Shown here one piece after another: positions 6,601-24,100 of a DNA stretch of 64,000 nt. The stretch lies in the NCBI GenBank assembly GCA_000002435.2, contig CM018789.1. One strand, given 5' to 3'. The stretch's first letter is position 1. Each line of letters starts with the position of its first letter. The DNA comes from Giardia intestinalis. Lineage: Eukaryota. The notes beneath the pieces were generated by a model that saw only the letters and a program-made list of their open reading frames with translations, was not told where the DNA came from and searched no databases. Position numbers and translations under genes: made by a program.

Positions 6601-7957
6601 CCCTCTGCGCTAAGGCTGAATGCTGGGCCTCGGTCCGATCTGTCTTCTCCTGAAGCAAGAGTTGCAAGGAAGCAATTATGTTATCCGGTTGGTAGGCGTC
6701 TTCCCTTCCGTGATAGTGAAACGCAATAATCCCTTTGATATTATCTAGCAGCGCTTCTAAGCGCCTTATATTGTGAGTTTTCTCATCCAGTTTTTCTAAT
6801 AGCTTCAAGTTCTCTGCTCTGTAGGTCTTTATCTCCTCAGCAGACGGGGATACATCCATGTTCGGGGAGACACTCCGCAAATCATCAAAGACCCTAGTGT
6901 CACAAGGAGAAATAAGGGGAGCATAGACCTTTGTGAACTCGCAAAGAGAATAATAAAGTAGTTTGGACTCTCTACTTGCGATGTCAAGTTGGTACTTCTT
7001 TAGCGACCGAAAGATGTGAGATAACACTTGAGATTCTGCGTACAAGGATTCATAGGTCAACGAAGCGGCTCGAACATCTGCAGTGTGTAACAGCAAAGAT
7101 TGAAGACGCTGTATCTCATCGTCTCGGTCTTGCAAAAGTCGTTCCCAGTGGTTGGAAGTCCTTGGCCTAAATTCGGTCTTAGGCGAAGATGAAGCTGACA
7201 TTACATTTAGGCTTACTTCGGGAGCAACTGTTGTGCTATATCTGTCGTATCCATCGGTTGATTCCTTCCGACTTCCTGAGGGAAGGTAGTTGCCACGAAA
7301 GTCAGGCTTACTTGATGATATGGGAATAGGCTCAGATTCTATAGATAGTACAGGGGGAGAGCCTTGGAGGGTAGGAGGTCCAGGACTGTTGAGCTCTGCC
7401 TTCTTGTCACAGCGTACCTCACGCAGAAGGTCGACAAGATCGAACTTCTCGCTCTCTTGCGCAAGAGCACTAAGTCGATTGCGTTCATCATCATCTAGTG
7501 GATTGCTCGATAGCAGAATGTGCAGAATTTCCGCATTGCCAATGGCAATGGCAAAGTCAAAGACAGAATGTCCGTCCGCGTCTTTTCTAAGAGGATATGC
7601 GCCGCTTAGATACTCAACCACATCTTTAGCCTCGTAGCTCACGGCAATCATAAAGACATCCTGGTCATTGGCGCCGATAACATTCTTCTCGAGTGGACCC
7701 AGATATGCGCAAATGGGCAGATGGTCCTGCATGGCTGCGAGCATCATGGCTGTGTGGCCTTCTGAATTTAGCATCCCAGACTCCTTTGGGGCGAGCAGCT
7801 CAACAATCTCTAAACTTCCGCGCTTTGCAGCCAGCATAAGGCCTGTTGTCCCAGTTGAATCAGTCCGCCGAGCACAGCCCTCCATTAGTTTCTTTACTGC
7901 AGGGACGTTCCGTGCAGAAATGGCCTGAATCCAGTCATCAGGCGCATCACTACTCAT
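3665..7957 (-). CDS. Ankyrin-repeat / coiled-coil protein, 1430 aa (Giardia 'protein 21.1'-like architecture)
   Basis: ATG at 7955-7957 (rev-comp). N-terminal ankyrin repeats ('GTTGLMLAAKRGSLEIVELL', 'GHTAMMLAA'), a ~800-aa heptad-rich central region, and C-terminal ankyrin repeats ('GTTALMLAVNKGNQDMIRLL', 'GKTALMYAAYKGN', 'GMTALMYAA'). Confidence 0.85.
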   Translation of the reverse strand: MSSDAPDDWIQAISARNVPAVKKLMEGCARRTDSTGTTGLMLAAKRGSLEIVELLAPKESGMLNSEGHTAMMLAAMQDHLPICAYLGPLEKNVIGANDQDVFMIAVSYEAKDVVEYLSGAYPLRKDADGHSVFDFAIAIGNAEILHILLSSNPLDDDERNRLSALAQESEKFDLVDLLREVRCDKKAELNSPGPPTLQGSPPVLSIESEPIPISSSKPDFRGNYLPSGSRKESTDGYDRYSTTVAPEVSLNVMSASSSPKTEFRPRTSNHWERLLQDRDDEIQRLQSLLLHTADVRAASLTYESLYAESQVLSHIFRSLKKYQLDIASRESKLLYYSLCEFTKVYAPLISPCDTRVFDDLRSVSPNMDVSPSAEEIKTYRAENLKLLEKLDEKTHNIRRLEALLDNIKGIIAFHYHGREDAYQPDNIIASLQLLLQEKTDRTEAQHSALAQRATGPTSTSSTATSGPGQHMKLEESTISTISEIPVGPFSSDTAKLHQLMDQKNKQIDTLMQRIHELETTLADTQNKFKNHVNFTKTVERNLADTVSNQINLFVSGQHRTQKLLEEKDQEISQLYAELDEVRSAQTSRTASPLRSRSAQQDINFSADGYAPYGQPVQIPTAILPPKTLYPMEQESDEYLADVVPRADYDALLAEYTLAQERFQKHMDFVGAVENNLAQSLSDQVQAFAAESRNIAGRMIEKDEEIARLVREISLLRASLSEAQENAAKSHAGMSVANDYDALSANIEASRIIQQLRGELQELNNRIQQKDEAIVSLQNTLRHQRFPRHSSPTKQPAALSSDTDLNRLQQEFDSYRDHAEQVQKNDQSLIQVLQARIKQQNDILEATKQSSPSQARGKQKQRGDDGWEDHPYDYAGNCPNCAELASQNQRNTDKVKQLNNENKLLSDELDKSKGALVLLRNEREDLLQQLSEVLKGAEEHHKKDKLIEDLNNECTSLTGRVDQLLADLNDQGELRHELGVLKKANDDQKALIDEVQSENIRLVSLLEKRSAVCDGETMTDLTYHAILDAFSDIETLRRHITDLKGKIHKLETDADRVEVRLEQSSPFSGRVNDQQLRHDSPSIISPYVGDRGASSAKLDHLQRQMNQLQDAVMLLTREQAQQPQSQTGPGRSSSTIKNQTNLVGGPSSSPRFSKPSTIIDGTQSPQRKATEHTPLMQAVLVNNIDAAHRALQYAKAQLKDGTTALMLAVNKGNQDMIRLLAPLEGGLRRKDGKLALHLALKREDFKVAQLLTKLEGADVSSFSTAGGRRTELMDAIIADDYLLGWSLFQVQSGLQDKDGKTALMYAAYKGNTCFVNMLKKRESRLRSNNGMTALMYAARSNKPEVVRLLMPLEGGLQDKTGISIGNQCSALMHACYNGSLDAVMCLVSLEAELRDSNNRTAMYYATHCSSIVTPEKKEAVVRTISTIIPSA

Positions 7958-7966
7958 GCAGAGAAT

Positions 7967-8563
7967 TTATTCAATTCTGGGTGTGAATATCTTGAACGGT
8001 ATGTCCTGTTCGTAGAGCCTAGCAAGGAGCTCATTCGTGGATGTGTCTTGTGAAGGAGAAACCTTGTAGCTACAAAGCTCGATTGGCCGGGTCGTGCCGT
8101 GGGGTAGAATGAACAGGCTGTAGTGACATTTCAAGAACAAGTCGTCCGGATCATGTCCAAGGGACCGCACAATTTTATTATGCAGGTCCCTAAGATGGTA
8201 GTTCCGTGTCAGATAAAGACCCCTGTGTGGTGGAGGATAAGGGGACAGCTCGGAAATCAATCTTTGTAGCATTGAAGCCACGGGTAAATAATTGCACAAG
8301 GCCGTAAGAAGCCCAAAGGGAACGTGCGTATATGGGTGCACCGGCTGAATGTTGGTTATGAGTTCAGGAAAGGTGGCGTCTCCGTTGTAGATGTTACTTG
8401 TCGGTCTAATAGGATAGAAAAACAGAAGAATGGGATACTGCTCTACATGTTCTGGGGCAAGCTGTGCGGCCGAAATCTGCATCCAGGAGCAGCTGACGCC
8501 AATACGTTCAGATGCCCGGTTCAGATATTCCACAGATGGAGGAACCGGCAGCCAATCTTCCAT
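7967..8563 (-). CDS. Hypothetical protein, 198 aa
   Basis: ATG (rev-comp 8561-8563) with A-rich 5' context. Its stop at 7967 lies only 10 bp from the ATG of the downstream ankyrin gene on the same strand. No domain recognised. Confidence 0.55.
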   Translation of the reverse strand: MEDWLPVPPSVEYLNRASERIGVSCSWMQISAAQLAPEHVEQYPILLFFYPIRPTSNIYNGDATFPELITNIQPVHPYTHVPFGLLTALCNYLPVASMLQRLISELSPYPPPHRGLYLTRNYHLRDLHNKIVRSLGHDPDDLFLKCHYSLFILPHGTTRPIELCSYKVSPSQDTSTNELLARLYEQDIPFKIFTPRIE

Positions 8564-8636
8564 TTTTAATGCATGGACCAGAAAAACGTTTACTTCTACC
8601 CATTAGGGCAATGGTAGCTATGTATGAAGACAGGCG

Positions 8637-9548
8637 CTAGTCAAGATATACAGCATAGATTTCATCCTCTATCCTGCACTCATTGACTCCGCGGACAATC
8701 CGGAAGTACCCGTTTTCGCCCCAATCGGGGCCCCAGGAGTTCTTTATAATCCAGTAGTCCGTCCCGTCATCAGTGGTCCCGTAGCCAACTATTTCCAAAG
8801 CATGGAACCCAAGATTGATGGTTCCATAGGTGTGTTTATAGACACCGCTTTCATAGTACGACAGGTCAGCGTACACGACGATCATGGTCTGCAGCGGTCC
8901 GCCAGCGACGAGCATTCCCATTATGGCCGGAACACTCTTGCTCACCTGTCCATATCCATGTGCCTTGTAGAGCTGTATCGGAGATCCGTCGTCACAGACC
9001 GCAGGGCACGGAGACGCTACGGTGTGACCATAGTCAACGTACTTAACGCATTCAGCTGTGGTTGCTCCTGTGAAAGTTAGAAAGCTCCATGTCGGTTGAA
9101 AATCGCCTCCATCACAGCCAAAGTTCTCTAGTGAGCAGGATATGAGGTGTTGCTGCGAGTAGGAGACGGCCTCCTTATCGATGCCCATCGCACAGCGCCT
9201 GTCCCCGAACACTCCTATAGCTGAGAATGCCCAACATCCCCCGCAACTTCCTTGGTCCAGCGCTGGTTTCACGCACTGAGGGTACTCATCACGGAAGTCG
9301 AACTGAGGCGGAATAGGATCTACGAGTTCCTGGACTTCTGTTATCGAAATTGGTGGTAGAGAGCCAGATCTTGCTCTAAGACGGTCGGGACGGATCAGCA
9401 TGCTACGAAATTCATCTTCTGTGACGTTTTCAAACCTTTTTGGCATCCCTGCTTTCCATGGAGGATTGAGAGCCTGAATCCGCCTTAGCTCGGCGCGGCT
9501 CACCAGGGGCTTTGCACAAACTACAGCCAAGAGCAAAGATAAAGCCAT
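8637..9548 (-). CDS. Cathepsin B-like cysteine protease (papain family C1), 303 aa
   Basis: Signal-peptide-like N-terminus. Active-site Cys block 'QGSCGGCWAFSA', His block 'HALEIVGYG' and Asn block 'WIIKNSWGPDWGENGYF'. Collinear with Giardia CP2/CP3-type cathepsin B ('LNPPWKAGMPKRFE', 'DFRDEYPQC'). Confidence 0.9.
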   Translation of the reverse strand: MALSLLLAVVCAKPLVSRAELRRIQALNPPWKAGMPKRFENVTEDEFRSMLIRPDRLRARSGSLPPISITEVQELVDPIPPQFDFRDEYPQCVKPALDQGSCGGCWAFSAIGVFGDRRCAMGIDKEAVSYSQQHLISCSLENFGCDGGDFQPTWSFLTFTGATTAECVKYVDYGHTVASPCPAVCDDGSPIQLYKAHGYGQVSKSVPAIMGMLVAGGPLQTMIVVYADLSYYESGVYKHTYGTINLGFHALEIVGYGTTDDGTDYWIIKNSWGPDWGENGYFRIVRGVNECRIEDEIYAVYLD

Positions 9549-9997: not shown

Positions 9998-12900
9998 CTA
10001 CGCCTTCCCGCGGCAGAGGAACCACCAACACAAGAAGCCAACAAGACCACCTACAACGATGACAGCAGCCACTGCGATACCTGCGATGGCGCCTGTAGAA
10101 AGGCCGCTACTCTTGTTTGTGTTGGGAATCACGCACGCGTCGCCCTGGAGCTGGTAGCCATTACCATCGTCGCACTTGCAGGCCTTCGCCGAGCCGGCAG
10201 CCGGGTCTATTACCTCTTCCGGGGCAGTGCAGGCGGCCTTGCAGCTCTTCTTGTTGGCCGCGACGTATTGCGCTTTATCCTTGCATGTAAGACAGGTTTC
10301 CCCGCCGCTCAAGTCGCACGTCTCGCACCCGGCCCCTTCCAGCGTCGGGCACGCGTTGGCCTGTCCCTTGACGCACGCGTCGCCCTGGAGCTGGTAGCCA
10401 TTACCATCGTCGCACTTGCAGGCCTTCGCCGAGCCGGCAGCCGGGTCTATTACCTCTTCCGGGGCAGTGCAGGCGGCCTTGCAGCTCTTCTTGTTGGCCG
10501 CGACGTATTGCGCTTTATCCTTGCATGTAAGACAGGTTTCCCCGCCGCTCAAGTCGCACGTCTCGCACCCGGCCCCTTCCAGCGTCGGGCACGCGTTGGC
10601 CTGTCCCTTGACGCACGCGTCGCCCTGGAGCTGGTAGCCATTACCATCGTCGCACTTGCAGGCCTTCGCCGAGCCGGCAGCCGGGTCTATTACCTCTTCC
10701 GGGGCAGTGCAGGCGGCCTTGCAGCTCTTCTTGTTGGCCGCGACGTATTGCGCTTTATCCTTGCATGTAAGACAGGTTTCCCCGCCGCTCAAGTCGCACG
10801 TCTCGCACCCGGCCCCTTCCAGCGTCGGGCACGCGTTGGCCTGTCCCTTGACGCACGCGTCGCCCTGGAGCTGGTAGCCATTACCATCGTCGCACTTGCA
10901 GGCCTTCGCCGAGCCGGCAGCCGGGTCTATTACCTCTTCCGGGGCAGTGCAGGCGGCCTTGCAGCTCTTCTTGTTGGCCGCGACGTATTGCGCTTTATCC
11001 TTGCATGTAAGACAGGTTTCCCCGCCGCTCAAGTCGCACGTCTCGCACCCGGCCCCTTCCAGCGTCGGGCACGCGTTGGCCTGTCCCTTGACGCACGCGT
11101 CGCCCTGGAGCTGGTAGCCATTACCATCGTCGCACTTGCAGGCCTTCGCCGAGCCGGCAGCCGGGTCTATTACCTCTTCCGGGGCAGTGCAGGCGGCCTT
11201 GCAGCTCTTCTTGTTGGCCGCGACGTATTGCGCTTTATCCTTGCATGTAAGACAGGTTTCCCCGCCGCTCAAGTCGCACGTCTCGCACCCGGCCCCTTCC
11301 AGCGTCGGGCACGCGTTGGCCTGTCCCTTGACGCACGCGTCGCCCTGGAGCTGGTAGCCATTACCATCGTCGCACTTGCAGGCCTTCGCCGAGCCGGCAG
11401 CCGGGTCTATTACCTCTTCCGGGGCAGTGCAGGCGGCCTTGCAGCTCTTCTTGTTGGCCGCGACGTATTGCGCTTTATCCTTGCATGTAAGACAGGTTTC
11501 CCCGCCGCTCAAGTCGCACGTCTCGCACCCGGCCCCTTCCAGCGTCGGGCACGCGTTGGCCTGTCCCTTGACGCACGCGTCGCCCTGGAGCTGGTAGCCA
11601 TTACCATCGTCGCACTTGCAGGCCTTCGCCGAGCCGGCAGCCGGGTCTATTACCTCTTCCGGGGCAGTGCAGGCGGCCTTGCAGCTCTTCTTGTTGGCCG
11701 CGACGTATTGCGCTTTATCCTTGCATGTAAGACAGGTTTCCCCGCCGCTCAAGTCGCACGTCTCGCACCCGGCCCCTTCCAGCGTCGGGCACGCGTTGGC
11801 CTGTCCCTTGACGCACGCGTCGCCCTGGAGCTGGTAGCCATTACCATCGTCGCACTTGCAGGCCTTCGCCGAGCCGGCAGCCGGGTCTATTACCTCTTCC
11901 GGGGCAGTGCAGGCGGCCTTGCAGCTCTTCTTGTTGGCCGCGACGTATTGCGCTTTATCCTTGCATGTAAGACAGGTTTCCCCGCCGCTCAAGTCGCACG
12001 TCTCGCACCCGGCCCCTTCCAGCGTCGGGCACGCGTTGGCCTGTCCCTTGACGCACGCGTCGCCCTGGAGCTGGTAGCCATTACCATCGTCGCACTTGCA
12101 GGCCTTCGCCGAGCCGGCAGCCGGGTCTATTACCTCTTCCGGGGCAGTGCAGGCGGCCTTGCAGCTCTTCTTGTTGGCCGCGACGTATTGCGCTTTATCC
12201 TTGCATGTAAGACAGGTTTCCCCGCCGCTCAAGTCGCACGTCTCGCACCCGGCCCCTTCCAGCGTCGGGCACGCGTTGGCCTGTCCCTTGACGCACGCGT
12301 CGCCCTGGAGCTGGTAGCCATTACCATCGTCGCACTTGCAGGCCTTCGCCGAGCCGGCAGCCGGGTCTATTACCTCTTCCGGGGCAGTGCAGGCGGCCTT
12401 GCAGCTCTTCTTGTTGGCCGCGACGTATTGCGCTTTATCCTTGCATGTAAGACAGGTTTCCCCGCCGCTCAAGTCGCACGTCTCGCACCCGGCCCCTTCC
12501 AGCGTCGGGCACGCGTTGGCCTGTCCCTTGACGCACGCGTCGCCCTGGAGCTGGTAGCCATTACCATCGTCGCACTTGCAGGCCTTCGCCGAGCCGGCAG
12601 CCGGGTCTATTACCTCTTCCGGGGCAGTGCAGGCGGCCTTGCAGCTCTTCTTGTTGGCCGCGACGTATTGCGCTTTATCCTTGCATGTAAGACAGGTTTC
12701 CCCGCCGCTCAAGTCGCACGTCTCGCACCCGGCCCCTTCCAGCGTCGGGCACGCGTTGGCCTGTCCCTTGACGCACGCGTCGCCCTGGAGCTGGTAGCCA
12801 TTACCATCGTCGCACTTGCAGGCCTTCGCCGAGCCGGCAGCCGGGTCTATTACCTCTTCCGGGGCAGTGCAGGCGGCCTTGCAGCTCTTCTTGTTGGCCG

Positions 12901-15847
12901 CGACGTATTGCGCTTTATCCTTGCATGTAAGACAGGTTTCCCCGCCGCTCAAGTCGCACGTCTCGCACCCGGCCCCTTCCAGCGTCGGGCACGCGTTGGC
13001 CTGTCCCTTGACGCACGCGTCGCCCTGGAGCTGGTAGCCATTACCATCGTCGCACTTGCAGGCCTTCGCCGAGCCGGCAGCCGGGTCTATTACCTCTTCC
13101 GGGGCAGTGCAGGCGGCCTTGCAGCTCTTCTTGTTGGCCGCGACGTATTGCGCTTTATCCTTGCATGTAAGACAGGTTTCCCCGCCGCTCAAGTCGCACG
13201 TCTCGCACCCGGCCCCTTCCAGCGTCGGGCACGCGTTGGCCTGTCCCTTGACGCACGCGTCGCCCTGGAGCTGGTAGCCATTACCATCGTCGCACTTGCA
13301 GGCCTTCGCCGAGCCGGCAGCCGGGTCTATTACCTCTTCCGGGGCAGTGCAGGCGGCCTTGCAGCTCTTCTTGTTGGCCGCGACGTATTGCGCTTTATCC
13401 TTGCATGTAAGACAGGTTTCCCCGCCGCTCAAGTCGCACGTCTCGCACCCGGCCCCTTCCAGCGTCGGGCACGCGTTGGCCTGTCCCTTGACGCACGCGT
13501 CGCCCTGGAGCTGGTAGCCATTACCATCGTCGCACTTGCAGGCCTTCGCCGAGCCGGCAGCCGGGTCTATTACCTCTTCCGGGGCAGTGCAGGCGGCCTT
13601 GCAGCTCTTCTTGTTGGCCGCGACGTATTGCGCTTTATCCTTGCATGTAAGACAGGTTTCCCCGCCGCTCAAGTCGCACGTCTCGCACCCGGCCCCTTCC
13701 AGCGTCGGGCACGCGTTGGCCTGTCCCTTGACGCACGCGTCGCCCTGGAGCTGGTAGCCATTACCATCGTCGCACTTGCAGGCCTTCGCCGAGCCGGCAG
13801 CCGGGTCTATTACCTCTTCCGGGGCAGTGCAGGCGGCCTTGCAGCTCTTCTTGTTGGCCGCGACGTATTGCGCTTTATCCTTGCATGTAAGACAGGTTTC
13901 CCCGCCGCTCAAGTCGCACGTCTCGCACCCGGCCCCTTCCAGCGTCGGGCACGCGTTGGCCTGTCCCTTGACGCACGCGTCGCCCTGGAGCTGGTAGCCA
14001 TTACCATCGTCGCACTTGCAGGCCTTCGCCGAGCCGGCAGCCGGGTCTATTACCTCTTCCGGGGCAGTGCAGGCGGCCTTGCAGCTCTTCTTGTTGGCCG
14101 CGACGTATTGCGCTTTATCCTTGCATGTAAGACAGGTTTCCCCGCCGCTCAAGTCGCACGTCTCGCACCCGGCCCCTTCCAGCGTCGGGCACGCGTTGGC
14201 CTGTCCCTTGACGCACGCGTCGCCCTGGAGCTGGTAGCCATTACCATCGTCGCACTTGCAGGCCTTCGCCGAGCCGGCAGCCGGGTCTATTACCTCTTCC
14301 GGGGCAGTGCAGGCGGCCTTGCAGCTCTTCTTGTTGGCCGCGACGTATTGCGCTTTATCCTTGCATGTAAGACAGGTTTCCCCGCCGCTCAAGTCGCACG
14401 TCTCGCACCCGGCCCCTTCCAGCGTCGGGCACGCGTTGGCCTGTCCCTTGACGCACGCGTCGCCCTGGAGCTGGTAGCCATTACCATCGTCGCACTTGCA
14501 GGCCTTCGCCGAGCCGGCAGCCGGGTCTATTACCTCTTCCGGGGCAGTGCAGGCGGCCTTGCAGCTCTTCTTGTTGGCCGCGACGTATTGCGCTTTATCC
14601 TTGCATGTAAGACAGGTTTCCCCGCCGCCGTCCGCCCCCCCCCCCCGGCCCGGCCTGTCCTGACAGGTCGCCACGGTCCTTCCATCGGCACCACCCGCCG
14701 GCCGGCACCTCTTCCCAGGGCCGGCTCCGGGCCGCGACGTATGCGCCGCTGTGCGCCCCCGCTCAGTCCACGCTTGGACGCACGCGTCGCCCTGGAGCTG
14801 GTAGCCATTACCATCGTCGCACTTGCAGGCCTTCGCCGAGCCGGCAGCCGGGTCTATTACCTCTTCCGGGGCAGTGCAGGCGGCCTTGCAGCTCTTCTTG
14901 TTGGCCGCGACGTATTGCGCTTTATCCTTGCATGTAAGACAGGTTTCCCCGCCGCTCAAGTCGCACGTCTCGCACCCGGCCCCTTCCAGCGTCGGGCACG
15001 CGTTGGCCTGTCCCTTGACGCACGCGTCGCCCTGGAGCTGGTAGCCATTACCATCGTCGCACTTGCAGGCCTTCGCCGAGCCGGCAGCCGGGTCTATTAC
15101 CTCTTCCGGGGCAGTGCAGGCGGCCTTGCAGCTCTTCTTGTTGGCCGCGACGTATTGCGCTTTATCCTTGCATGTAAGACAGGTTTCCCCGCCGCTCAAG
15201 TCGCACGTCTCGCACCCGGCCCCTTCCAGCGTCGGGCACGCGTTGGCCTGTCCCTTGACGCACGCGTCGCCCTGGAGCTGGTAGCCATTACCATCGTCGC
15301 ACTTGCAGGCCTTCGCCGAGCCGGCAGCCGGGTCTATTACCTCTTCCGGGGCAGTGCAGGCGGCCTTGCAGCTCTTCTTGTTGGCCGCGACGTATTGCGC
15401 TTTATCCTTGCATGTAAGACAGGTTTCCCCGCCGCTCAAGTCGCACGTCTCGCACCCGGCCCCTTCCAGCGTCGGGCACGCGTTGGCCTGTCCCTTGACG
15501 CACGCGTCGCCCTGGAGCTGGTAGCCATTACCATCGTCGCACTTGCAGGCCTTCGCCGAGCCGGCAGCCGGGTCTATTACCTCTTCCGGGGCAGTGCAGG
15601 CGGCCTTGCAGCTCTTCTTGTTGGCCGCGACGTATTGCGCTTTATCCTTGCATGTAAGACAGGTTTCCCCGCCGCTCAAGTCGCACGTCTCGCACCCGGC
15701 CCCTTCCAGCGTCGGGCACGCGTTGGCCTGTCCCTTGACGCACGCGTCGCCCTGGAGCTGGTAGCCATTACCATCGTCGCACTGCGCGGTCTTCTCGTTG
15801 TGCTTTGCCAGCACTGTTACACAAACTAGGAGAAATCCTACCAACAT
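9998..15847 (-). CDS. vsp: Variant-specific surface protein (VSP) with ~23 tandem 80-aa cysteine-rich repeats, ~1949 aa
   Basis: C-terminus '...[31 protein letters not shown]' (TM helix plus invariant CRGKA tail). Body rich in CXXC (CETC, CLTC). Signal peptide '[14 protein letters not shown]'. The track ORF begins at GTG 15868; first ATG is 7 codons in (15847). VSP poly(A) motif follows the stop. Confidence 0.92.
10131..15783. repeat. 240-bp tandem repeat array (~23 units) inside the VSP coding region
   Basis: Identical 73-aa antisense ORFs recur every 240 bp from 10176 to 14256 and 14823 to 15543, so units appear 100% identical. Unit encodes '[80 protein letters not shown]'. Confidence 0.95.
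14629..14776. repeat. Aberrant repeat unit: ~148-bp GC-rich segment with a poly-C tract replacing 61 bp of the canonical unit (net +87 bp, in frame)
   Basis: After 'ggtttccccgccgc' the unit diverges into 'cgtccgcccccccccccggcccggcctgtcctgacagg...' and rejoins at 'gacgcacgcgtcgccctggag'. It encodes the G/R/A-rich '[52 protein letters not shown]' and lacks the Cys pattern. Confidence 0.8.
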
Positions 15848-16059
15848 TAGCCGGAGTACACGTGCCACTGCTCTTCTGTCAGACTTGTGTGTTGCCGCGA
15901 GCAGTGAGAGACAGCCGCTCTCGCTCTTCCTGATCAGTTAGACTGGAGAAGGACGAGATGATAGCATGCCCATCGAAGGCCAGCTGATAGTGCGGTTCCC
16001 CCTGGCTTCAATAGAAACAGGACCAGTGAGGGCCAGGCTCAGATCGCACCTCTCTTGTG

Positions 16060-16136
16060 GAATGATCGTTCGGGGTGCACTCTTGTACATTGCTGTCAGT
16101 ATGTTTGTCGGCTTCCTTTGCAGAGGTAAGGTGTAG
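16060..16136 (+). pseudogene. VSP C-terminal relic (TM + 'CRGKV*' tail fragment)
   Basis: Plus-strand frame reads '...VRGALLYIAVSMFVGFLCRGKV*' ending at TAG 16134-16136, followed by 'atttaaatagcaaac', a degenerate VSP poly(A) motif. The open frame upstream (from 15942) has no CXXC content, so only the tail survives. Confidence 0.6.
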
Positions 16137-19100
16137 ATTTAAATAGCAAACGCGTCCCTTGTACAACCTGCTCTCCCCATCAGGCACGGACTCCGAGATC
16201 TCTGTGCATGCGGGACCAAGAAATCCTAAGTGAGCAGCGATGCTCCTCCTGCTCCAGTAGCCCAGCCGCTAGCAGCTCCTCTCCAGGCTCCTTTGCTCCC
16301 TGGCCACAGCCTTCTGTGCTCTCTTGCAGTCCCTAGAGGAGATACCGGGTCCGTGGAAGTGCGGACCAACAGAGGTAAGCCCATGAGACGCTCTCGCCTG
16401 GTGTGTGCATAGCTCTGATCTTGTGTACTAAATGCTACTAAGGCTCCCCATCGCATAACAAGGTGCCAGGTGGGGTTCGGAAGGCAGCCAGCCCTCCCAG
16501 ATCTGGACAGGAGGGAAGCACTGCCCAAAGCGTGCTGCCTCCTGAGTTGATAGGCCGGGACTCCTGTTACCCCAGATCATCATAGTGCTACCGCTGTTCA
16601 CTATGGAGGCACTCTGACCCACAGTGCCTGAGGTTGTTGGTGCAGGCGGCAAAGGGCTCTTCATAGTGGGCTACCATCAGTGGAAGGAACGGGAGCCTGG
16701 GTGTCTTGTCCTTCTGCCAGTGGTTGGCCGGGCTCATGATCAGCACCCTTTGCTGTGGGTACTGGGGTGGCGGAAGTTCCCACTTGCTGACAAGGAGCCG
16801 GGCGATGCTCGCTTGTCATCGTCAACCCGGACTGGGCTGGTCCTGGGCAGATAGACAGTGAGTACGGGGATCCCGTCCCCCGTCGTAAACCACGCCACAC
16901 GGAGAGGGTGTGGTAGCTCGATGCATTTTCCTACGTTACACGACGCAAAGAAGAACGGCCTTTTGATGCGTAGCTCTGGAAGCCTGCAGAGCCCAACCGA
17001 GGGGACTACATCCTGGTGTTGACTTCTGATACGGTTCGGTAGAGGCCAGCTCGATGCTCGCAAGCTTGTGGGAAGCACCAGGGCCGGCACATGCACCTGG
17101 ACAGCAACGCAGGCACACATCTCGGATGCAACTCCGCTGAGGATCTTGCGAGGGGTCGGCTTGGGTCAGTGGTGGAAGGACTTTGCGCAAGCGCTCCATG
17201 CATCAGGGGCCCCTCGAGACCACAAAAGCTCGGCGGCGCTGGCGCACATGTGGACGCGAGACGGTGGGAAAGAGCTGCGTGGTGACTTATAGATGGAAAG
17301 GCTGGGCGCGCATAACAATACGCCCAGGAGAGCTATGCACAGCGCAGTGGCCCGGCTGGCTCCTCTTGTAATACGGAGCATCGGCTGCGGGCATGTGCTC
17401 TTGAAGAGTGGGGGCATCCAGATGAGTAGTGCAGACGTGAGTGAATTGACGGCGCTCAGAGTATGCATCGGGTGGACAAGTAGGGGACAAGAGCTTATGG
17501 CACCACCTGGTCGACGGATGGCTCAAGATGTGTAAGGTACAGCAATCATTCGACCAAAGGTGATGATTGCCCGACAGATGCCAGAGCAGCTGTGTAGATT
17601 GGGCCCTGGTGGTGGTTTGCCACAGGAGGACGCAGGCAGTATGTTTGGATAATAGATACGCTGACTGCCACCGGTTTGCACAATACACCTCTACAATCGA
17701 TCATCTCACCGTGTGTGAGGAGGAGATGAGGCTCCTCGACTTCAGAAAAAGTGGACCTTCAGTAAACTCTGCTCTGCTGCAAATGCATAAAATCAAAAAC
17801 CAGCCTCCAACTCATCTGCAAGTTCTACGGCCTTTCCACGCTTAGGAGCCGAGGAGGCACTACAGGTGTCCCTGCTGTAATCCGGGCTAATGGCTAGTCT
17901 CTGTAGCCCCAGCCCTACCCCGCCAGCCCGCCGGGCACATCTACACTTTCTGTGCGAACCGACTCTCTAGGAACCGTCATGCACAGATAGTCTTCCGAGT
18001 ACTTAGAAGACACCATCCTCTGCTGAGGCGTGTCATCAAGGGCCAAGCACTAAGGCGAGGATGGCCAGAGACAGACCCCTCGCAGTTCTGTTCAACATTA
18101 GCAGCGAGCATGCAAACGAGTGTGCGGTCTTGACGTGCACTGTGATCCAGGTGCCCGGCAGACTGGGCCCATAGCAGCTGGTGCGCAGGCCCCGTCGCTA
18201 GCCTGTGCACAAGCCGTGGTCCACCTCGAAGGACAGCGGAGGATTCTGCGACCCCTTCTGGGTGTACAGCCGTCACTATGGAGCGCGGCGAACAGGCATC
18301 TGCACAGAGGTCGCGGGCTCGCTTAGAGGCGTGTAGACAGCCGACGCCCCGCCTTGTTGCAATGAGAGCTCTGAGATCAGGCAGCCGCTCCACCCATCGG
18401 CCATCATGTGAATATACATGCACCGTCCGAGAAGACCACTACAGTGCCTAGACGACACTATAAGCGTATGCGCCCCCCGCTATAATAAACAAGTGGCAGA
18501 CAGACCAGCAGCGGAAGCAGCAGGGGTATGCCGAGCCGGTGTAGGGCGCATGGTTAGAACCACAGCTCTCTGGGACAATGACAGTACACTGCTCGAACAC
18601 CCCGTTGCATCCGTCCGTGCTATTCGTAGGCTGCAGCGCCTGGCAGGCCCGCAACTAGCACAGCGCGCCCCCAAGCCGCGCACCCAGCATGCAGGGCCAG
18701 GACGGCTGACCCTGTGCGAAGAGGCGCCCTCCCAGGAAGACGACAGTCGCCATCGCTGCCCAAGTTTTTTAGCATTCAAACGCGGGCCCGATGGTCACGC
18801 TGGCTTCCCTGGCTTTTGCACTGCCTGTCGAGCCTGGCTTCTGACCGGCCTGGGATGGCTGACGGGAGCGTGCAGGTCGGCGCCCTGGTTGCCGGGCCCA
18901 GCCTTCCATCCGCACTTGATGCTGAGCGATAACCCGAGCGGCGCAGGTGGTCTTCTTCGCTCTACATGCAGTGAGCTGCCTGGACGGATGCACGACCGGC
19001 CGTCTGCCTCTGCTCTGCTTCTGGCCACCAGGAGGCGCTGGCTCGAGTGCGTGCCACGGGGCGCTGCCCGCGATGACAGGGGCAGCGCATCACTTCTCGG

Positions 19101-19838
19101 GCCTTCCGGTCCATCAGCAGGTGATCCTCAGAGCGCACTTGGAGCCCGGACAGACACACCAGCACGGACCCAGCCACCTTGCGATGCCGCGATCTACCAC
19201 GGACACTGCAGCCTCCGCAATCATCCACTCTGCCTGTCTTTTGCTTAAGAAAAGAGACACTGTATTTAGCAGCCCCCGTGACTTACCGCAACGGGCCAGT
19301 TTCCCAGCATCTTGCCGGATGCCTCCCTTGCACCGCACTGCCCTATTCTTCCCTGCGACAGAAAGAGCTCTGGGGCCCTGGCCCAGACGGAGCCCATTCC
19401 CATAACCTTGCTGCACTCCCCGTCAGGCCCGTCATCACAGAGCACACGCGCACAGGGTCATCCACGCTGCATCACCCTGGGCCTCGTCACCGAGGTAGCC
19501 CCAGCTGGCAGGCCAGACGCCTATGGGCTCACAAGCCCCGCCTCCTGCATGCTCTAGAGACGGCCGGTGCCCTGTCCCGTCGCCTGGCGCGCCGTCGGGT
19601 TCCATCAAGCGCGGCTGAAGAGGCCCGGGCCATAACACTGCCGAAGCCACTGCATTGTCACCAGCAATCAGGTGCACCTCATTTCTCAGGAAATCTTTCT
19701 CTGCCCTAAAAAACGTCTGCTGCCCGATAATTCTGGTAATTACTACGATTGCTTCTGAGACCAAAACGACCTGTGTGTACAGCCGAAGGCATCTAATAGA
19801 GAAAGAATCCCCTAATAAATTAAATTTACCCTGAATTT
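16137..19838. other. ~3.7 kb GC-rich region without credible coding potential (gene desert / degenerate sequence)
   Basis: Only short overlapping ORFs (60-276 aa) in all six frames, with R/A/P/G-rich low-complexity translations. Base composition is visibly GC-richer than flanking genes. No start context or domain is recognisable. Confidence 0.6.
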
Positions 19839-21167
19839 ATGATTGATGTTTTTGTAGATGTTCTTGGCAAACTAGCTGCAGACGGAATCTACAACAAAGC
19901 CATCGATCCAGCTATTGCATTTTCAACGTTCTATACCATATTAACAGATCAACAATTAGTCGGGAACATCCTTTCTCTTTATTTCCACAAACACCCCCAG
20001 CACCCCACAAAAACAGCCATTTTCTGTCTTTGTGAAGAACTATTCGGTGAGAAGGTCGCCACCAACCTAGTTAAAAGCTGGCCTATAGCGTCTTCTAAGG
20101 TCGCGGACCTGGCTGAGCGTCTTCACGCCAGGATCTGTGTAGGCAATACACCTATTTTAAACACAAACACACAGCCAAATGCACGGCAAGGAGCACTCCT
20201 CTGGCGCACTGACGAGTCTCCTACCTTGAGCCATCTTAAACGGCAGCTTGATGAATTGTTAGAATGTTGTAACAGCCCCAAAGATGCTGCACAACAGGTC
20301 TCCTTTCAATCAATCTTGCCAGTAATCAAAGACATGGCAGAGACAATTGCTAGACTATCCACGGAATGGCATGAACAGAGTAGAGCCGCTCTAACGGAAA
20401 AAGACGCTCAAATCAAAGACCTGAAGCATCGCATCTGCGAGTTGGAGGCAGGCCTATCGGACATGTGCGTTAAGATAGAAGTCTATATGGGACAGATGGA
20501 GGCATATTCTCATGAAATGGCCGCCAAGAATGAGCAAATTCTCATCCTGCATCAACAGCTAAAGGAGGTACGGACCGAGTCTAGTGATCGCGAGCTAAAT
20601 GCACTGAAGGAGCTACTGAACGAGAAGGATTGTCTGATAACAAACATTCGCGCAGATCTAACGGAATCCACGACCACTGCTGATCGCCTGGCGCACGAGT
20701 GTATACACCTGAATCAAAGAAGCGAGGAATTATCTCTTTACAAATCTCTGGTTGCTAATACAATAGATGCCTTGAAAACCCTATCAGAAAGAGATGCAGA
20801 ACTATCATACTCACCTCCGGCGGACGATACCTATCTGAGGCTTCCGGAATACGTTGCGTTTGTTATAGATGTAATCCGGACAAAAGCCCACTGGCTTGTG
20901 ACAGAAGAACCTGGCCAGAGTCTCCCCCTTCCATCGCAAGATACAAGCCCGTTGCTTCACTCCGTTCGTGGGGGATCAGTGGCGCCCTCGGTAGTTGAGT
21001 CTACAACAGCGGCAAATAATTCTTCTCTAGCACCAGATAGCAGCCACCTCAACCCACCCTATTCCTACCGTTCAGCTAGCAATTCCAGCAGCAGTATACT
21101 AGGAAGATTGGCAATGATTGGAAGAGATAAGGATGACGTCAGATCTCATCCACGAGGAGCTCAATAG
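19839..21167 (+). CDS. Hypothetical coiled-coil protein, 442 aa
   Basis: ATG with strongly AT-rich 5' context ('cctaataaattaaatttaccctgaatttATG'). Central heptad-rich region ('KDAQIKDLKHRICELEAGL', 'NEQILILHQQLKEVR'). Confidence 0.65.
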   Translation: MIDVFVDVLGKLAADGIYNKAIDPAIAFSTFYTILTDQQLVGNILSLYFHKHPQHPTKTAIFCLCEELFGEKVATNLVKSWPIASSKVADLAERLHARICVGNTPILNTNTQPNARQGALLWRTDESPTLSHLKRQLDELLECCNSPKDAAQQVSFQSILPVIKDMAETIARLSTEWHEQSRAALTEKDAQIKDLKHRICELEAGLSDMCVKIEVYMGQMEAYSHEMAAKNEQILILHQQLKEVRTESSDRELNALKELLNEKDCLITNIRADLTESTTTADRLAHECIHLNQRSEELSLYKSLVANTIDALKTLSERDAELSYSPPADDTYLRLPEYVAFVIDVIRTKAHWLVTEEPGQSLPLPSQDTSPLLHSVRGGSVAPSVVESTTAANNSSLAPDSSHLNPPYSYRSASNSSSSILGRLAMIGRDKDDVRSHPRGAQ

Positions 21168-24100
21168 TACAAGCAGACCTAGGAAGCAATCTACGAGTGT
21201 CATCTATATTGCAGTCCCTGCTTTTCACAATAATAACCAAATCCTCTAGAGTTGATGGGCATCCAAGCTTATTAAACTGCCCAACCGTCATAAACTTCAC
21301 GGGAATACGCGCCATAACTTGGGAAACGAACGGCTTCATTGTTGTCACTAAATAACTCAGGTTCCTCTTCGCTTCCGAGGCGAACTTCAACGCTATCTTA
21401 GACGGCTTTTTATCAGCATAATCCTTCTCTGTCGTTTCCTTTATAAGTTCTAAGTATTTCCACGTTCCACCGACCAAGCGGCCTGTAGATGTTTGCTTCC
21501 TCTCACTCACATCTGCCTTAATGATCTTCTCATTCAGTTTCTCAAGAAGGACTTTACCGAAGTTCGGATCTATAAGGGACAGAATAACATGGAAAACTTT
21601 GATAAGAAAATGCTCTTTAGGTCCAATTCCATCGAAGACATCTGTTATACAGGCCAAGTTAGCCCCTAGTTGCTCACACATTCGCAAAATCTCATATGAT
21701 AATTCGCTATAGTGAACCACAAAGAAATTTGGACTGTCTGCCAATATCCATAAGGATGGTGGGACAGAGTCTGGCACCGAGGACGCTTCACATCCGGCCA
21801 TACACTCGTCGAAGGCCGCTCTCAGTGGAGCAGTCAGAGTAAGCTTATTGAAGATATCTTTACCAGGCCTGAAAATACTCTTCATGGCGCATTGACAAAT
21901 TATCTTTGAAAGATCTGCAATCCCATGTTCTTGGAGGCGGATTCGTAGATAGCGTTCCTCTGAATAGATCGAGCACACGGACCTGTTCATCTCCAGGCCC
22001 TTCAATTCAGACTCACTGTAGACCTTGCTGCCAGAAGAGACAAAGGAAATGGATGCTCCGCTGCCAGATGGAGCATTAGAAATAAAGAAGTGTCCACTGG
22101 ACTGGAGCATAGAGATAATATCTTTGTTACTTGAGCACAGCCTGTCTAAAATAGCATTTCTAAACTGGAAGAGATCCAGACCCTTGTCTTCTTGGGCAAG
22201 GTGAACAAGACGCTTGAAGAATATATTGTGAAAGTCAGTGAGAGGGGCCACCAACTGCCTCGTATCTTTGAGGTTATTTTGCACCTTATCTCTCCCATGA
22301 TAAATTGCCTCTTGAATTCTACAAAATTTGCACTTATCCAAGTTATAGTAAGATCTGCCGTTGCAGACCATTTCTAAAGAGCCTGTATCGGGAACAAAGT
22401 CGCCGAACAAGGAATGTGAGGCTGCATGTTCAACTGAAGAGGCAAAGACGGTCACTTCGTTGATTCTAGAAGAGAGCAAATCTGAGTCTTCGTCAGTCAT
22501 GAGTGCTATTAGCGCAGAGTCTGTCAAGTAAAAAACAGAATGGGCATCGGTGAAGATGAGGGATCCGTCCTTCTCTCTTGTAAAGAGAAGCGCCAGCCCA
22601 TACCTGCTTGGTGAGCAAATGCCCTGCAGCTTTGCCAAATCCAGTGGTGACTGTATAAGAGCTGAAGCTACGGAATCTGTGTGCAGATCCCCGACCTGAA
22701 GAAGGAATATCCCCGTAGAGATACAAGAGACTTTAGCAATACGTTTCAACGATGATCTGATGTCCGGTATCATTAGATAGTTGCGAATGGCCTGAGTAAT
22801 ATACCATTCTGGACTATTTCTATAAACGCCTCCTATGTAGCTGCGTTTAATCATTGAGTTTCTTGTCTTCAGTGCCGAATGGGCCGGAAGCCTGTACGCC
22901 TCCATCACTGATGCCATATCCTTATACGTCTGAGAGGAGTATGAACATATATCCTGAAGCGTGCGATATAAGATATCGTACTTGCTCTCAAATAAGGTAG
23001 TTTGCTTGGAATATTCGCTTTCAGGCCACAGTGCGTCGACACTCGCCGGATTCTCCTCTAAGAACTTCCGAAATATCTCAGTAAGGAGGCTGGCTTTCTC
23101 AGTGACCACTTCAAGGACGGTTTGATCCACCGACGTGTCAGCTTTCGCCTTGGCAGCACTCTTAGCACTCTCAGGAGGATCAGACTGAAAACAAGCATCC
23201 ACAGGACACGCTGTGAACATTAAAGTAGCCTCCTTCGGAGCCTTCTGAGATACAATATTGGTAGTAAATTGCAAGTTCTGGACGGGCTGCTCTAGCAACT
23301 GCGTAGTGACAGATATGTGGCGTTCAGTGCGGCGATAATACATAGCGTCTATCTCTGTGATGGTTGATAAGAAGAAAGATGACACGACCGAGTGAATATA
23401 ATCTGTCTTGCTCTTATCCTTCACGGAAATGATATCGTCCAACGTTTTACGTAAGAGTGTCATAAAATCCTCCGTTTCTGTTTGCAGACCAAACGCATTG
23501 CATACTATCTGCAGCACATCATCGTGGTTAAGAAACATATATGTCTCTCGGTATATCTCATGATCTTCTGGGCCAACAGAGGGAATATAGACTGAGGTTG
23601 CCCGTAGAAGGAACACAACATACTCAAGACCGGTGAGAAAGAGATACATGACATCCGAATGCATGTAGTAATAGTGTTCCGAAAACATGTCAATAGGAGA
23701 CCTAACAGAGCCAGCGTTACACCCATTTGCAATGGCCAGAGAAAGAGATCGATAGACCGGGTCACTAAGCGTTAAGTTGTGCATGCCGAGAGCCGCCAAA
23801 AACCCTGCCTCAATCCTGGTATGTTGAACAGTCAAGTTAACGAACTTGGAGAAAAAGTCCATGAAGTATTGCTCGTCCCCTTCCAGAAGTTTAGATGCCA
23901 ATTCCTGAGCAGAACTGGAAAGCACAAGCTCATCATCTGTATCGCCCATGGGCTCCAAATCCACATCGTCAATGCTGTCAATTTGGCCATGGAAGAACAC
24001 CGTCATAAAGCAAAGGTCCAACAACTTTTGGCTTGTAGCCATTATTGTTTGACAGTACTTTCTTGTAATATCCGTATAAATTGTCGAATACGAATTGGGA

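Follow-up and report, generated by a model that had tools for sequence, protein, structure and literature searches.

Introduction

What kind of DNA fills an unusually long gap between a VSP gene and its neighbour, and does anything hold it in place? In the 64-kb window of Giardia intestinalis WB considered here (the whole stretch of DNA that was analysed), the spacer between the coding sequence of a VSP and the 442-aa gene GL50803_00113616 (19839-21167) measures 3,990-3,991 bp and contains no credible gene, whereas the 28 remaining spacers are no longer than 674 bp, with a median length of 55 bp. This desert, which begins at 15848, lies directly upstream (5') of a VSP with tandem repeats.

The surroundings of VSPs are generally poor in genes (Xu et al. 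2020, PMC7000408), and higher allelic variation has been reported in their vicinity (PMC7000408). VSP intergenic regions have a median length of 1,280 nt and a mean of 2,131 nt, compared with 79 and 392 nt genome-wide, the 2 kb upstream of VSPs have a GC content of 53.9% compared with 45.2% for all protein-coding genes, and VSP flanks contain pseudogene and TE relics (bioRxiv 10.1101/2022.03.07.483299). Inverted VSP pairs, moreover, are separated by 2-4 kb of non-coding DNA (PMC2996952). The desert is one case of this already known class of long, gene-poor, GC-elevated VSP flanks. For the interval itself we favor, with a probability of about 75%, the reading that it is a non-coding, neutrally evolving flank of a VSP locus rather than a gene, a structured RNA or an identifiable mobile element.

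Results

A long, GC-rich gap without coding signal

The GC content of 16137-19838 is 0.587, as opposed to 0.472 for the window without the VSP and the desert, and all other 3.7-kb stretches of the window remain at or below 0.51 (mean 0.471, sd 0.014). A six-frame codon log-likelihood model, trained on the 27 genes of the window, gave negative or near-zero values throughout the interval and became positive exactly from 19839. The initial annotation had described a gene desert of raised GC content at this place, and both descriptions are borne out by the spacer lengths, the absence of coding signal in six frames and the base composition. The WB annotation places a single protein accession, KAE8301612, which presumably is the VSP, between cathepsin B (KAE8301611) and GL50803_00113616 (KAE8301613), and the accession numbers thus imply an interval without annotated CDS.

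Neither internal or terminal repeats nor tandem arrays, poly(A) or telomere repeats were found in the desert, and G-quadruplex motifs are almost absent, with one C-strand run at 17907. A scan of the desert for bacterial promoters and terminators stayed at chance level; these are bacterial models, which are irrelevant to Giardia. The features of the interval and its VSP neighbor are compiled in Table 1.

Table 1. Features of the VSP locus and its upstream desert (positions of the window)
Position	Strand	Feature	Evidence
9998-15847	-	Live VSP gene	ORF and translation; tandem repeats; 3' end and polyadenylation signal
15966-16136	+	VSP TM and cytoplasmic-tail remnant, 56-codon ORF 'MPIEGQ...FVGFLCRGKV*'	Six-frame translation, tblastn, DNA alignment to three VSP 3' ends
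16113-16156	+	Conserved VSP 3' end: ...FLCRGK(A/V) codons, stop, extended polyadenylation signal ATTTAAATAGCAAACGCGTC	35/44 matches to canonical VSP 3' sequence
16157-17169		Left third: GC-rich non-coding DNA, mostly unalignable to P15	blastn, global alignment
17170-19350		Orthologous core common to assemblages A and E (L005 about 6400-8640)	Colinear, 66.7% identical
17780-17810		AT-rich island conserved between A and E (CAAATGCATAAAATCAA.AA.CAGCCTCC)	17-nt exact run; about 1 such run expected by chance
18418-19248	+	276-aa ATG ORF, judged spurious	Frame-shifting gaps against P15, fast divergence within assemblage A, no homologues
18448-18654	-	'Cys-rich' antisense ORF (68 aa, TTG start), judged spurious	P15 gap inside, no Pfam match in frame
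18760-18781		AT-rich island conserved 22/22 between A and E (CCAAGTTTTTTAGCATTCAAAC)	Longest identical run in the desert
19653-19838	+	AT-rich 5' flank/promoter region of GL50803_00113616	P15 conservation rises again, 88% in the last 70 nt

A dead VSP tail at the left edge

At the ATG of the live VSP (15845-15847) stands a TAATGTT initiator; the gene comprises about 23 perfect tandem repeats of 240 bp and has a CRGKA tail. Within the desert, a truncated VSP remnant lies head-to-head relative to this gene. Its 56 codons match VSP residues 1921-1955 in tblastn with an E value that is weak taken alone, and the diagnostic part of this pseudogene relic is the conserved 3' end, which is the sole match in the window besides the real VSP 3' end; shuffled deserts yielded 0-1 matches even at the lower threshold of 24/44. 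The relic ends with a stop codon at 16136 and a polyadenylation signal at 16156, at and just to the left of the coordinate at which the initial annotation had let the desert begin.

A search for further VSP 3' ends in 15869-19838 and in the corresponding P15 gap gave no convincing candidate, but one chance-level match (24/44) at 16418-16461. The CXXC-rich extracellular domain (PF03302) had no Pfam match at E<=1 in six frames of the WB desert, and tblastn with WB and P15 VSPs against the desert beyond the tail returned chance-level matches only (E of at least 0.29), as did a panel of nine proteins of local genes (among them VSPs, ankyrins and cathepsin B) searched against the WB and P15 deserts. 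A decayed array of VSPs or other surface proteins, as had been suggested for this DNA, finds support only in one clear VSP 3'-end relic. In the other 3.6 kb, none of the frames resembles a VSP, a Cys-rich protein or PF03302.

Open reading frames, mobile-element domains and RNA

The earlier statement that the interval holds no plausible ORF is correct in so far as there is no credible gene, but it overlooked the 276-aa ATG ORF, which we judge spurious. The open stretch of 278 codons is marginally unusual in length (P=0.022 in block shuffles), and the ORF stays open in several assemblage A isolates. Its codon score is about zero, it lacks conservation in P15, to which its alignment contains gaps of 70, 10, 66 and 19 nt, and its translation varies by 7-12% among assemblage A isolates, compared with about 2% for the neighboring protein. 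The ORF is reported by automatic gene callers only, is absent from the NCBI annotation, and has neither a Pfam match nor a homologue. A homology search with the eight longest open stretches of the desert (a 1,339-aa concatenate) likewise found no match; this negative result is weak, since a known exact Logan copy of the 276-aa ORF was not returned either. The antisense ORF that had been regarded as an eroded Cys-rich gene did not withstand comparison: a 70-nt P15 gap (about 18518-18588) lies inside it, and it matches no family. A protein-coding gene in the interval was rejected by the codon model, the six-frame Pfam search, tblastx against P15, and the indel and periodicity tests.

No RVT_1, Exo_endo_phos or other Pfam domain was detected at E<=1 in six frames of the desert. 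With neither a reverse transcriptase or endonuclease match nor repeats, the degenerate, GilD-like retroelement proposed earlier gains no support from these searches.

According to Hudson et al. (2012, PMC3510501), Giardia ncRNA and trans-intron units carry a 12-nt 3' processing motif, with an AT-rich initiator upstream of it. This motif, HCMTTYHHTHAA, occurs 4 times in the window, where about 3 matches are expected by chance, and 0 times in 15848-19838. Rfam gave no match in the desert, either at the gathering threshold or at E<=1, and ARAGORN found no tRNA there. Folding of 102 windows of 150 nt on both strands revealed no excess structure (mean z +0.16, sd 1.1, minimum -2.7). As conservation, too, is not above neutral, the idea of unannotated non-coding RNA loci finds no footing in this interval.

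Neutral drift between assemblages A and E

In P15 (assemblage E), an orthologous 5.6-kb gene-free gap with a GC content of 0.61 lies between the P15 VSP and GLP15_4316 (L005), and the adjacent live P15 VSP has a GC content of 0.49. The two deserts differ in length by 1.6 kb and by many indels. Of the left third, only 16647-16922 can be aligned to P15 (L005 5179-5459), weakly and at 66.6% identity. The identity of the core is to be compared with the 71.4% found at the four-fold sites of flanking genes (1,210 sites from six gene pairs). Its alignment includes 35 indels, 4 of which are multiples of three, and the mismatches are spread evenly across the three codon positions without codon periodicity; tblastx between the WB and P15 deserts gave matches in all six frames with similar scores, none of them preferred. 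The near-four-fold identity, the few in-frame indels and the missing periodicity together indicate that the core evolves neutrally.

Two AT-rich islands stand out within this drifting sequence. Conservation of the island at 17780-17810 may be due to chance, the expected number of about 1 such run being our estimate from an identity of 0.68. For the run at 18760-18781, the number expected at this length is about 0.15, so that its conservation is no more than suggestive. A short minus-strand ORF that starts at the latter island is not conserved in P15. Towards GL50803_00113616, a blastn block spanning 19653-22000 reaches 84.8% identity to P15, with exact runs of 21 nt at 19785 and 23 nt at 19808.

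A synteny breakpoint

The block of cathepsin B, VSP and desert is present in assemblages A and E and absent at this position in three more divergent Giardia lineages. In L007, a C12 peptidase gene and a 0.9-kb AT-rich spacer precede the GL50803_00113616 orthologue, and in L009 and L010 an ankyrin gene is located directly upstream of it, so that three different upstream neighbors occur among the lineages sampled. Because the block is lacking in the three divergent lineages, the desert sits at a synteny breakpoint. This position is consistent with the earlier suggestion of a structural or recombination domain tied to VSPs, whose function stays a candidate.

At L011, a second VSP locus of P15, a gene-free flank of 3.3 kb has a GC content of 0.60-0.68 and holds a short VSP transmembrane relic. 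This flank shows no similarity to the desert; what the two loci share is limited to the VSP gene with about 90 nt of its 5' flank.

GC content: eroding or maintained

When changes within assemblage A were polarised with P15, the desert showed 25 S>W and 8 W>S changes (binomial p=0.0046; n=33, visible through amino-acid differences only and polarised with a distant outgroup), which amounts to a per-site bias of about 1.7. The flanks, with a GC content of 0.47, showed 46 S>W and 31 W>S changes and hence the same per-site bias. Owing to this excess of changes from GC to AT, the GC richness of the desert looks like an eroding inheritance, not an equilibrium, as far as sequence comparison can tell.

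Differences between WB and P15 are commoner at A/T sites than at G/C sites, and for this reason GC-biased gene conversion was considered as a cause of the GC richness. Since the A/T-site excess cannot be polarised and the polarised changes within assemblage A point in the opposite direction, it was demoted to a rival.

Discussion

Our data point to an interval that has been carried along as a VSP flank and is drifting without constraint on its sequence. We suggest that a very GC-rich segment may have arrived with, or been generated by, a rearrangement of the VSP locus at the synteny breakpoint, and that this event would date back to the ancestor shared by assemblages A and E; an insertion in that ancestor, and not a loss elsewhere, assumes the usual assemblage phylogeny. 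VSP genes beside the segment would since have been replaced or rearranged, leaving the tail relic behind, and the segment itself would meanwhile have been losing GC through the mutation bias that also acts on its neighbors. Judged from its sequence, the present role of the desert is most likely passive, namely to separate the VSP, as a spacer, from the housekeeping gene GL50803_00113616.

Several other origins have to be weighed against a passive flank. The entire interval could be a graveyard of eroded VSP or Cys-rich surface-protein genes, left by repeated VSP turnover, to which both the 3'-end relic at 16113-16156 and the VSP transmembrane relic in the GC-rich flank of the second P15 VSP locus would lend themselves. 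We nevertheless consider this unlikely: beyond a tail of about 60-130 nt, neither a PF03302 match (WB) nor a VSP tblastn match (WB and P15) was obtained, although at about 0.2 substitutions per site in each lineage, the divergence since the A/E split, a VSP that died at about that time should remain recognisable, and the GC content of the P15 desert is far above that of the adjacent live VSP. An ancient, fully degraded TE remnant, GilD-like non-LTR or other, that mediated or accompanied the insertion of a VSP cassette would suit an interval at a synteny breakpoint, and retrotransposon relics have been described at breaks of synteny as well as around and between duplicated pairs of VSPs (10.1101/2022.03.07.483299; PMC3091692). 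The desert, however, has none of the Pfam domains of such an element, no poly(A), no tandem array and no repeats at its ends or inside, and it shows no similarity to L011, the one other VSP flank compared. RT similarity, reportedly the original mark of GilD copies, is absent here as well, and we regard a TE remnant as rather improbable. That the 276-aa ORF is an unannotated or newly arisen protein-coding gene is very improbable indeed: its marginal length and its openness within assemblage A are outweighed by the gaps, the divergence and the near-zero codon score described above.

The spacer might, alternatively, be a functional VSP-associated domain that is kept for a sequence-independent role, as a boundary in chromatin, as the origin of antisense or double-stranded RNA that silences VSPs, or as a recombination hotspot in which biased gene conversion would keep the GC content high; a replication site would be a further candidate role of this kind. 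Length and GC richness are kept in A and E despite the drift of the sequence, a similar GC-rich flank exists at another VSP locus (L011), the two AT-rich islands are conserved slightly beyond expectation, and the strong variation of the 276-aa ORF translation relative to the neighboring protein agrees with the allelic variation reported near VSPs (PMC7000408). Against such a domain speak the missing conservation of sequence or structure, the difference in length and the many indels between A and E, and the absence of the block from this position in three other lineages. Recent polarised changes are, moreover, mostly GC>AT, and as desert and flanks share the same mutation bias, nothing is seen that would hold the GC content up. 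We therefore give this reading a small chance. Its more specific form, in which the spacer would exert sequence-independent VSP control, as a chromatin boundary or as an antisense/double-stranded-RNA unit that silences all but one VSP, with its size and GC content kept in A and E and the islands at 17780-17810 and 18760-18781 acting as initiators, appears quite improbable.

By itself, the desert matters little, being one example of a genome-wide pattern in WB, in which VSP flanks are accompanied by pseudogene debris. What the comparison adds is that a VSP flank can be retained in both assemblages A and E as orthologous DNA that evolves at a neutral rate, that this desert lies at a recurrent synteny breakpoint, and that its GC richness is apparently not maintained but eroding under an ordinary AT-biased mutation spectrum, which points to an origin from a very GC-rich sequence at about the time of the A/E split. 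If this proves true of other VSP flanks, it could aid the dating of VSP-locus insertions and would argue against sequence-specific regulatory roles of such regions.

GilD is said to have been described by Arkhipova and Morrison in 2001 as a 'dead' non-LTR retrotransposon family of Giardia, the copies of which were reportedly first recognised by RT similarity. GilD and the desert both are degenerate DNA in a chromosome-internal position, but the desert is without reverse transcriptase or endonuclease similarity in any frame. The left edge of the interval can be compared with published truncated VSPs of 224-902 nt and with truncated CRGKA pseudogenes, which are identified through their conserved 3' end (Adam et al. 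2010, PMC2996952). Like these, the stretch at about 15966-16156 retains the TM region, the CRGK codons, the stop and the extended polyadenylation signal; in contrast to them, it reads CRGKV instead of CRGKA, is shorter, with about 60 nt well conserved, and accounts for the left edge only and not for the 3.6-kb body of the desert.

The published VSP flanks (PMC7000408; 10.1101/2022.03.07.483299) provide the nearest counterpart. As in those regions, the desert adjoins an Inr-bearing VSP, comprises 3,991 nt with a GC content of 0.587 and no supported genes, and holds a fragment of a VSP pseudogene. It differs from them in that neither a TE relic nor similarity to the L011 flank was found, and it belongs to the long, GC-rich end of their range (published mean 2,131 nt; 53.9% GC in the 2 kb upstream). 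With the non-syntenic regions of variable gene families (Jerlstrom-Hultqvist et al. 2010, PMC3091692), finally, the block shares its lineage-specific occurrence; that study catalogues genes at breakpoints, whereas the lineage-specific DNA at this locus is mostly non-coding.

Results

A GC-rich gene desert beside the VSP gene

Exact sequence matches assign the window to Giardia intestinalis WB (ATCC 50803), within a record of 1,485,438 bp. We found that the stretch between the start of the VSP surface-antigen gene (15847) and GL50803_00113616 (19839) is a gene desert, as the initial annotation had claimed for 16137-19838: the spacer spans 3,990-3,991 nt and lacks a codon signal, whereas the longest of the remaining 28 spacers of the window measures 674 nt (median 55 nt). 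GC is raised as well, with 0.587 for 16137-19838 versus 0.472 for the window minus VSP and desert, and exceeds 0.51 in no 3.7-kb stretch outside the desert. The R/A/P/G-rich translations described earlier are present and are the expected output of GC-rich non-coding DNA. Since a single protein accession number, presumably that of the VSP, lies between KAE8301611 (cathepsin B) and KAE8301613 (GL50803_00113616), we infer that the desert contains no CDS in the current reference annotation.

Features of the locus and its counterparts (window coordinates unless a region is named; L005, P15 orthologous region; L007, L009 and L010, more divergent Giardia lineages)
Feature	Coordinates	Strand	Remarks
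Cathepsin B CP1, KAE8301611	8637-9548		303 aa; exact-sequence match
VSP gene	9998-15847	minus	ATG at 15845-15847, VSP initiator TAATGTT ahead of it
VSP tandem-repeat arrays	10131-14628 and 14777-15783	minus	within VSP gene
Hypothetical protein GL50803_00113616, KAE8301613	19839-21167	plus	442 aa; exact-sequence match
1371-aa ORF, GL50803_0016930, KAE8301614	21139-25254	minus	annotated 1,350 aa
WB-P15 desert block	16647-16922 = L005 5179-5459		67%
WB-P15 desert block	17204-18513 = L005 6431-7772		68%
WB-P15 desert block	18597-18991 = L005 7786-8168		72%
Upstream neighbour, spacer	L007 9100-10000		very AT-rich
Upstream neighbour, protein 21.1-like ankyrin-repeat	L009 1-873
Upstream neighbour, protein 21.1-like ankyrin-repeat	L010 1-1079

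When a codon log-likelihood model was trained on 27 window genes, these genes scored 0.05-0.22, whereas all six frames of the desert gave values near zero or negative; the score became positive precisely at 19839. The desert holds a 276-aa ATG ORF (18418-19248, plus) that the initial annotation missed. Its 278-codon open stretch is marginally long given the local composition (P=0.022, 1,000 block shuffles), and gaps of 70, 10, 66 and 19 nt break it in the P15 alignment. The antisense ORF at 18448-18654 (minus), previously described as compatible with an eroded Cys-rich gene, has a 70-nt P15 alignment gap inside it and does not hold up as such. Six-frame translations with masked stops matched no Pfam family at E<=1 except SMYLE_N (E=0.26, a chance match). 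A homology search with the eight longest open stretches of the desert (1,339 aa in total) returned no matches, a weak negative because a known exact copy of the 276-aa ORF was also missed.

Beyond the desert, the 3' ends of the convergent genes GL50803_00113616 (plus) and GL50803_0016930 (minus) share 29 nt (21139-21167). The latter has 1,350 aa in the reference versus 1,371 aa in the window ORF and in other isolates, which may reflect a start-codon discrepancy.

A VSP relic and the live VSP

At the left edge of the desert, plus-strand 15966-16136 translates as MPIEGQ...IAVSMFVGFLCRGKV*, and 35 of the 44 positions of 16113-16156 (TTCCTTTGCAGAGGTAAGGTGTAGATTTAAATAGCAAACGCGTC) agree with the canonical VSP 3' end and its extended polyadenylation signal. 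Apart from the 3' end of the live VSP, the 64-kb window has no other such site; even at the lower threshold of 24/44, shuffled deserts yielded 0-1 matches. The segment at 15966-16156 is a truncated VSP pseudogene of the kind reported by Adam et al. (PMC2996952). It is oriented head-to-head with the live VSP, which indicates that VSP genes were replaced or rearranged here in the past. In the P15 gap, an equivalent VSP 3'-end relic was not seen.

Within the live VSP itself, a 240-bp (80-aa) unit is tandemly repeated about 23 times with 100% identity; the copies form two arrays parted by a 148-nt interruption that includes a 12-C run at 14635. That the copies do not differ at all suggests expansion or homogenisation in the very recent past, or else a collapsed assembly. 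The 1,853-aa antisense ORF at 10268-15829 (plus) is an artefact of the stop-free repeats.

Orthologous desert in assemblage E and synteny in other lineages

In the assemblage E isolate P15, the GL50803_00113616 orthologue is GLP15_4316 (84% identity, contig ACVC01000034), preceded in order by an ankyrin protein, a C12 peptidase, cathepsin B, a 579-aa VSP and a 5.6-kb gap without a called gene, whose GC is 61% versus 44% for the flanking genes and 49% for the P15 VSP. The deserts of P15 and of the assemblage A reference WB are colinear by blastn. Flanking genes align at 83-85% nucleotide identity and the desert core (17170-19350) at 66.7% over 2,069 columns, where 4 of 35 indels are multiples of three and mismatches spread evenly over the three codon positions; tblastx gives comparable matches in all six frames. 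Four-fold degenerate sites (n=1,210) in six orthologue pairs from the flanks show 71.4% identity, so the desert drifts at about the neutral rate or slightly above it.

Other lineages differ upstream of the GL50803_00113616 orthologue. In L007 (orthologue 59% identical), a 0.9-kb AT-rich spacer alone separates the C12 peptidase from the orthologue, and cathepsin B, VSP and desert are all missing at this position; L009 (66%) and L010 (63%) have an ankyrin-repeat gene whose end lies 157 and 540 nt, respectively, before the orthologue. Counting A and E as one, three arrangements occur across the sampled lineages, and these differing neighbours mark the position as a recurrent synteny breakpoint. 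In the proposed synteny comparison across assemblages, the desert is orthologous and colinear between A and E, but the block of cathepsin B, VSP and desert is missing in L007, L009 and L010 and is specific to A+E among the lineages sampled. That it was gained by insertion, rather than lost elsewhere, assumes the usual assemblage phylogeny.

Probable erosion of the GC-rich segment

Between WB and P15, differences are more frequent at A/T than at G/C sites, in a comparison that cannot be polarised. Variants of the 276-aa ORF in other assemblage A isolates (automatic gene calls, P0126-P0134) share 88-93% amino-acid identity, versus 98% for the neighbouring 442-aa protein in an A-type isolate. This implies, if the isolates are comparable, a within-A nucleotide divergence of this stretch about 3-4 times the 1.3% seen at flank four-fold sites of the A-type isolate. 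We mapped 45 amino-acid differences, each explicable by a single nucleotide change, onto WB and polarised them with P15, which gave 25 changes of GC>AT versus 8 of AT>GC (binomial p=0.0046). Any parsimony errors would add to the AT>GC count, which makes this skew a conservative one. For 11 kb of flanking sequence (GC 0.47), the numbers were 46 versus 31. As the per-site AT bias of about 1.7-fold is equal in desert and flanks, no force appears to hold up desert GC. Under this bias, equilibrium GC would be about 0.38-0.47 by rough calculation. Taking the A-E distance as about 0.44 substitutions per site (Jukes-Cantor correction of 66.7% identity), GC of the desert would have been roughly 70% when A and E split, and the desert could not be many times older than this split, by a rough calculation from 33 polarised changes, counted only where the amino acid differs, and a calibrator that includes selected sites. 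Such a limited age fits the absence of the block from L007, L009 and L010.

A second P15 VSP locus and read assemblies

A second P15 VSP locus (L011, contig ACVC01000215) has a 3.3-kb gene-free 3' flank (3720-7031) with GC of 0.60-0.68, beside a VSP of 0.43-0.50, and contains a 52-nt VSP transmembrane relic (4684-4735, minus; 86.5% identity with the region coding for the VSP transmembrane segment). Apart from the VSP gene and about 90 nt of its 5' flank, it has nothing in common with the WB and P15 deserts. GC-rich, gene-free VSP flanks thus recur, but the two loci do not carry recent copies of a single element.

Logan short-read assemblies, whether WB-like, A-type or P15-like, all stop short of the 442-aa gene, by no more than about 280 nt, at the desert's right edge (19561 in L001/L002, 19603 in L008, 19813 in L003, and the equivalent of 19816 in L006). 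In the index, the 442-aa gene occurs in 69 blocks versus only 2 contigs for the 276-aa ORF. Together, these observations suggest that the desert is poorly covered or highly variable in Illumina data.

Discussion

With a probability of roughly three in four, the desert is non-coding VSP-flank DNA under neutral evolution, and it probably goes back to a GC-rich segment that inserted around the A/E ancestor and has since been eroding toward AT. Among the alternatives, decay of a VSP or other surface-protein array accounts for the 3'-end relic at the left edge, but no VSP domain was found by Pfam in any of the six frames. Reverse transcriptase, endonuclease, ankyrin and kinase domains were equally absent from them; without such retroelement domains, and without repeats, a GilD-like retroelement is not borne out. 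Tandem repeats, telomere repeats and meaningful direct or inverted repeats were all lacking in the desert, as was similarity to the remainder of the window.

Non-coding RNA loci are likewise unsupported: neither Rfam (at gathering thresholds or E<=1), which also rules out rRNA genes as the GC-rich source, nor ARAGORN (tRNAs) matched the desert, and the 12-nt 3' processing motif that marks Giardia ncRNAs and trans-introns (PMC3510501) is absent from it. Folding both strands in overlapping windows of 150 nt (n=102; mean z +0.16, sd 1.1, minimum -2.7) shows that RNA structure is not in excess. A structural or recombination domain linked to VSPs would fit the position at a synteny breakpoint, and a sequence-independent regulatory role may exist, at low probability. 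The initial interpretation is supported in part, by the VSP relic at the edge and by the tie to VSP-locus plasticity.

Neutral VSP-flank DNA agrees with what is known of such loci. VSP surroundings tend to be gene-poor with more allelic variation (Xu et al. 2020, PMC7000408), and WB-P15 synteny breaks carry VSPs (Jerlstrom-Hultqvist et al. 2010, PMC3091692). Inverted VSP pairs enclose 2-4 kb of non-coding DNA, and truncated VSP pseudogenes exist (Adam et al. 2010, PMC2996952). A preprint on Cys-rich families (bioRxiv 10.1101/2022.03.07.483299) gives VSP intergenic regions a length of 1,280 nt (median) or 2,131 nt (mean) versus 79 and 392 nt genome-wide, and 2-kb VSP upstream regions a GC of 53.9% versus 45.2% for all protein-coding genes; it also describes untranscribed 'hypothetical genes' next to VSPs, VSP flanks that carry pseudogene and TE relics, and one VSP intergenic region resembling subtelomeric gene-free DNA. 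The within-A variation of the 276-aa ORF stretch agrees with the published higher variation near VSPs (PMC7000408). The long, GC-rich, gene-poor VSP flank is therefore a kind of feature already known, and the desert belongs to this class, toward its long, GC-rich extreme.
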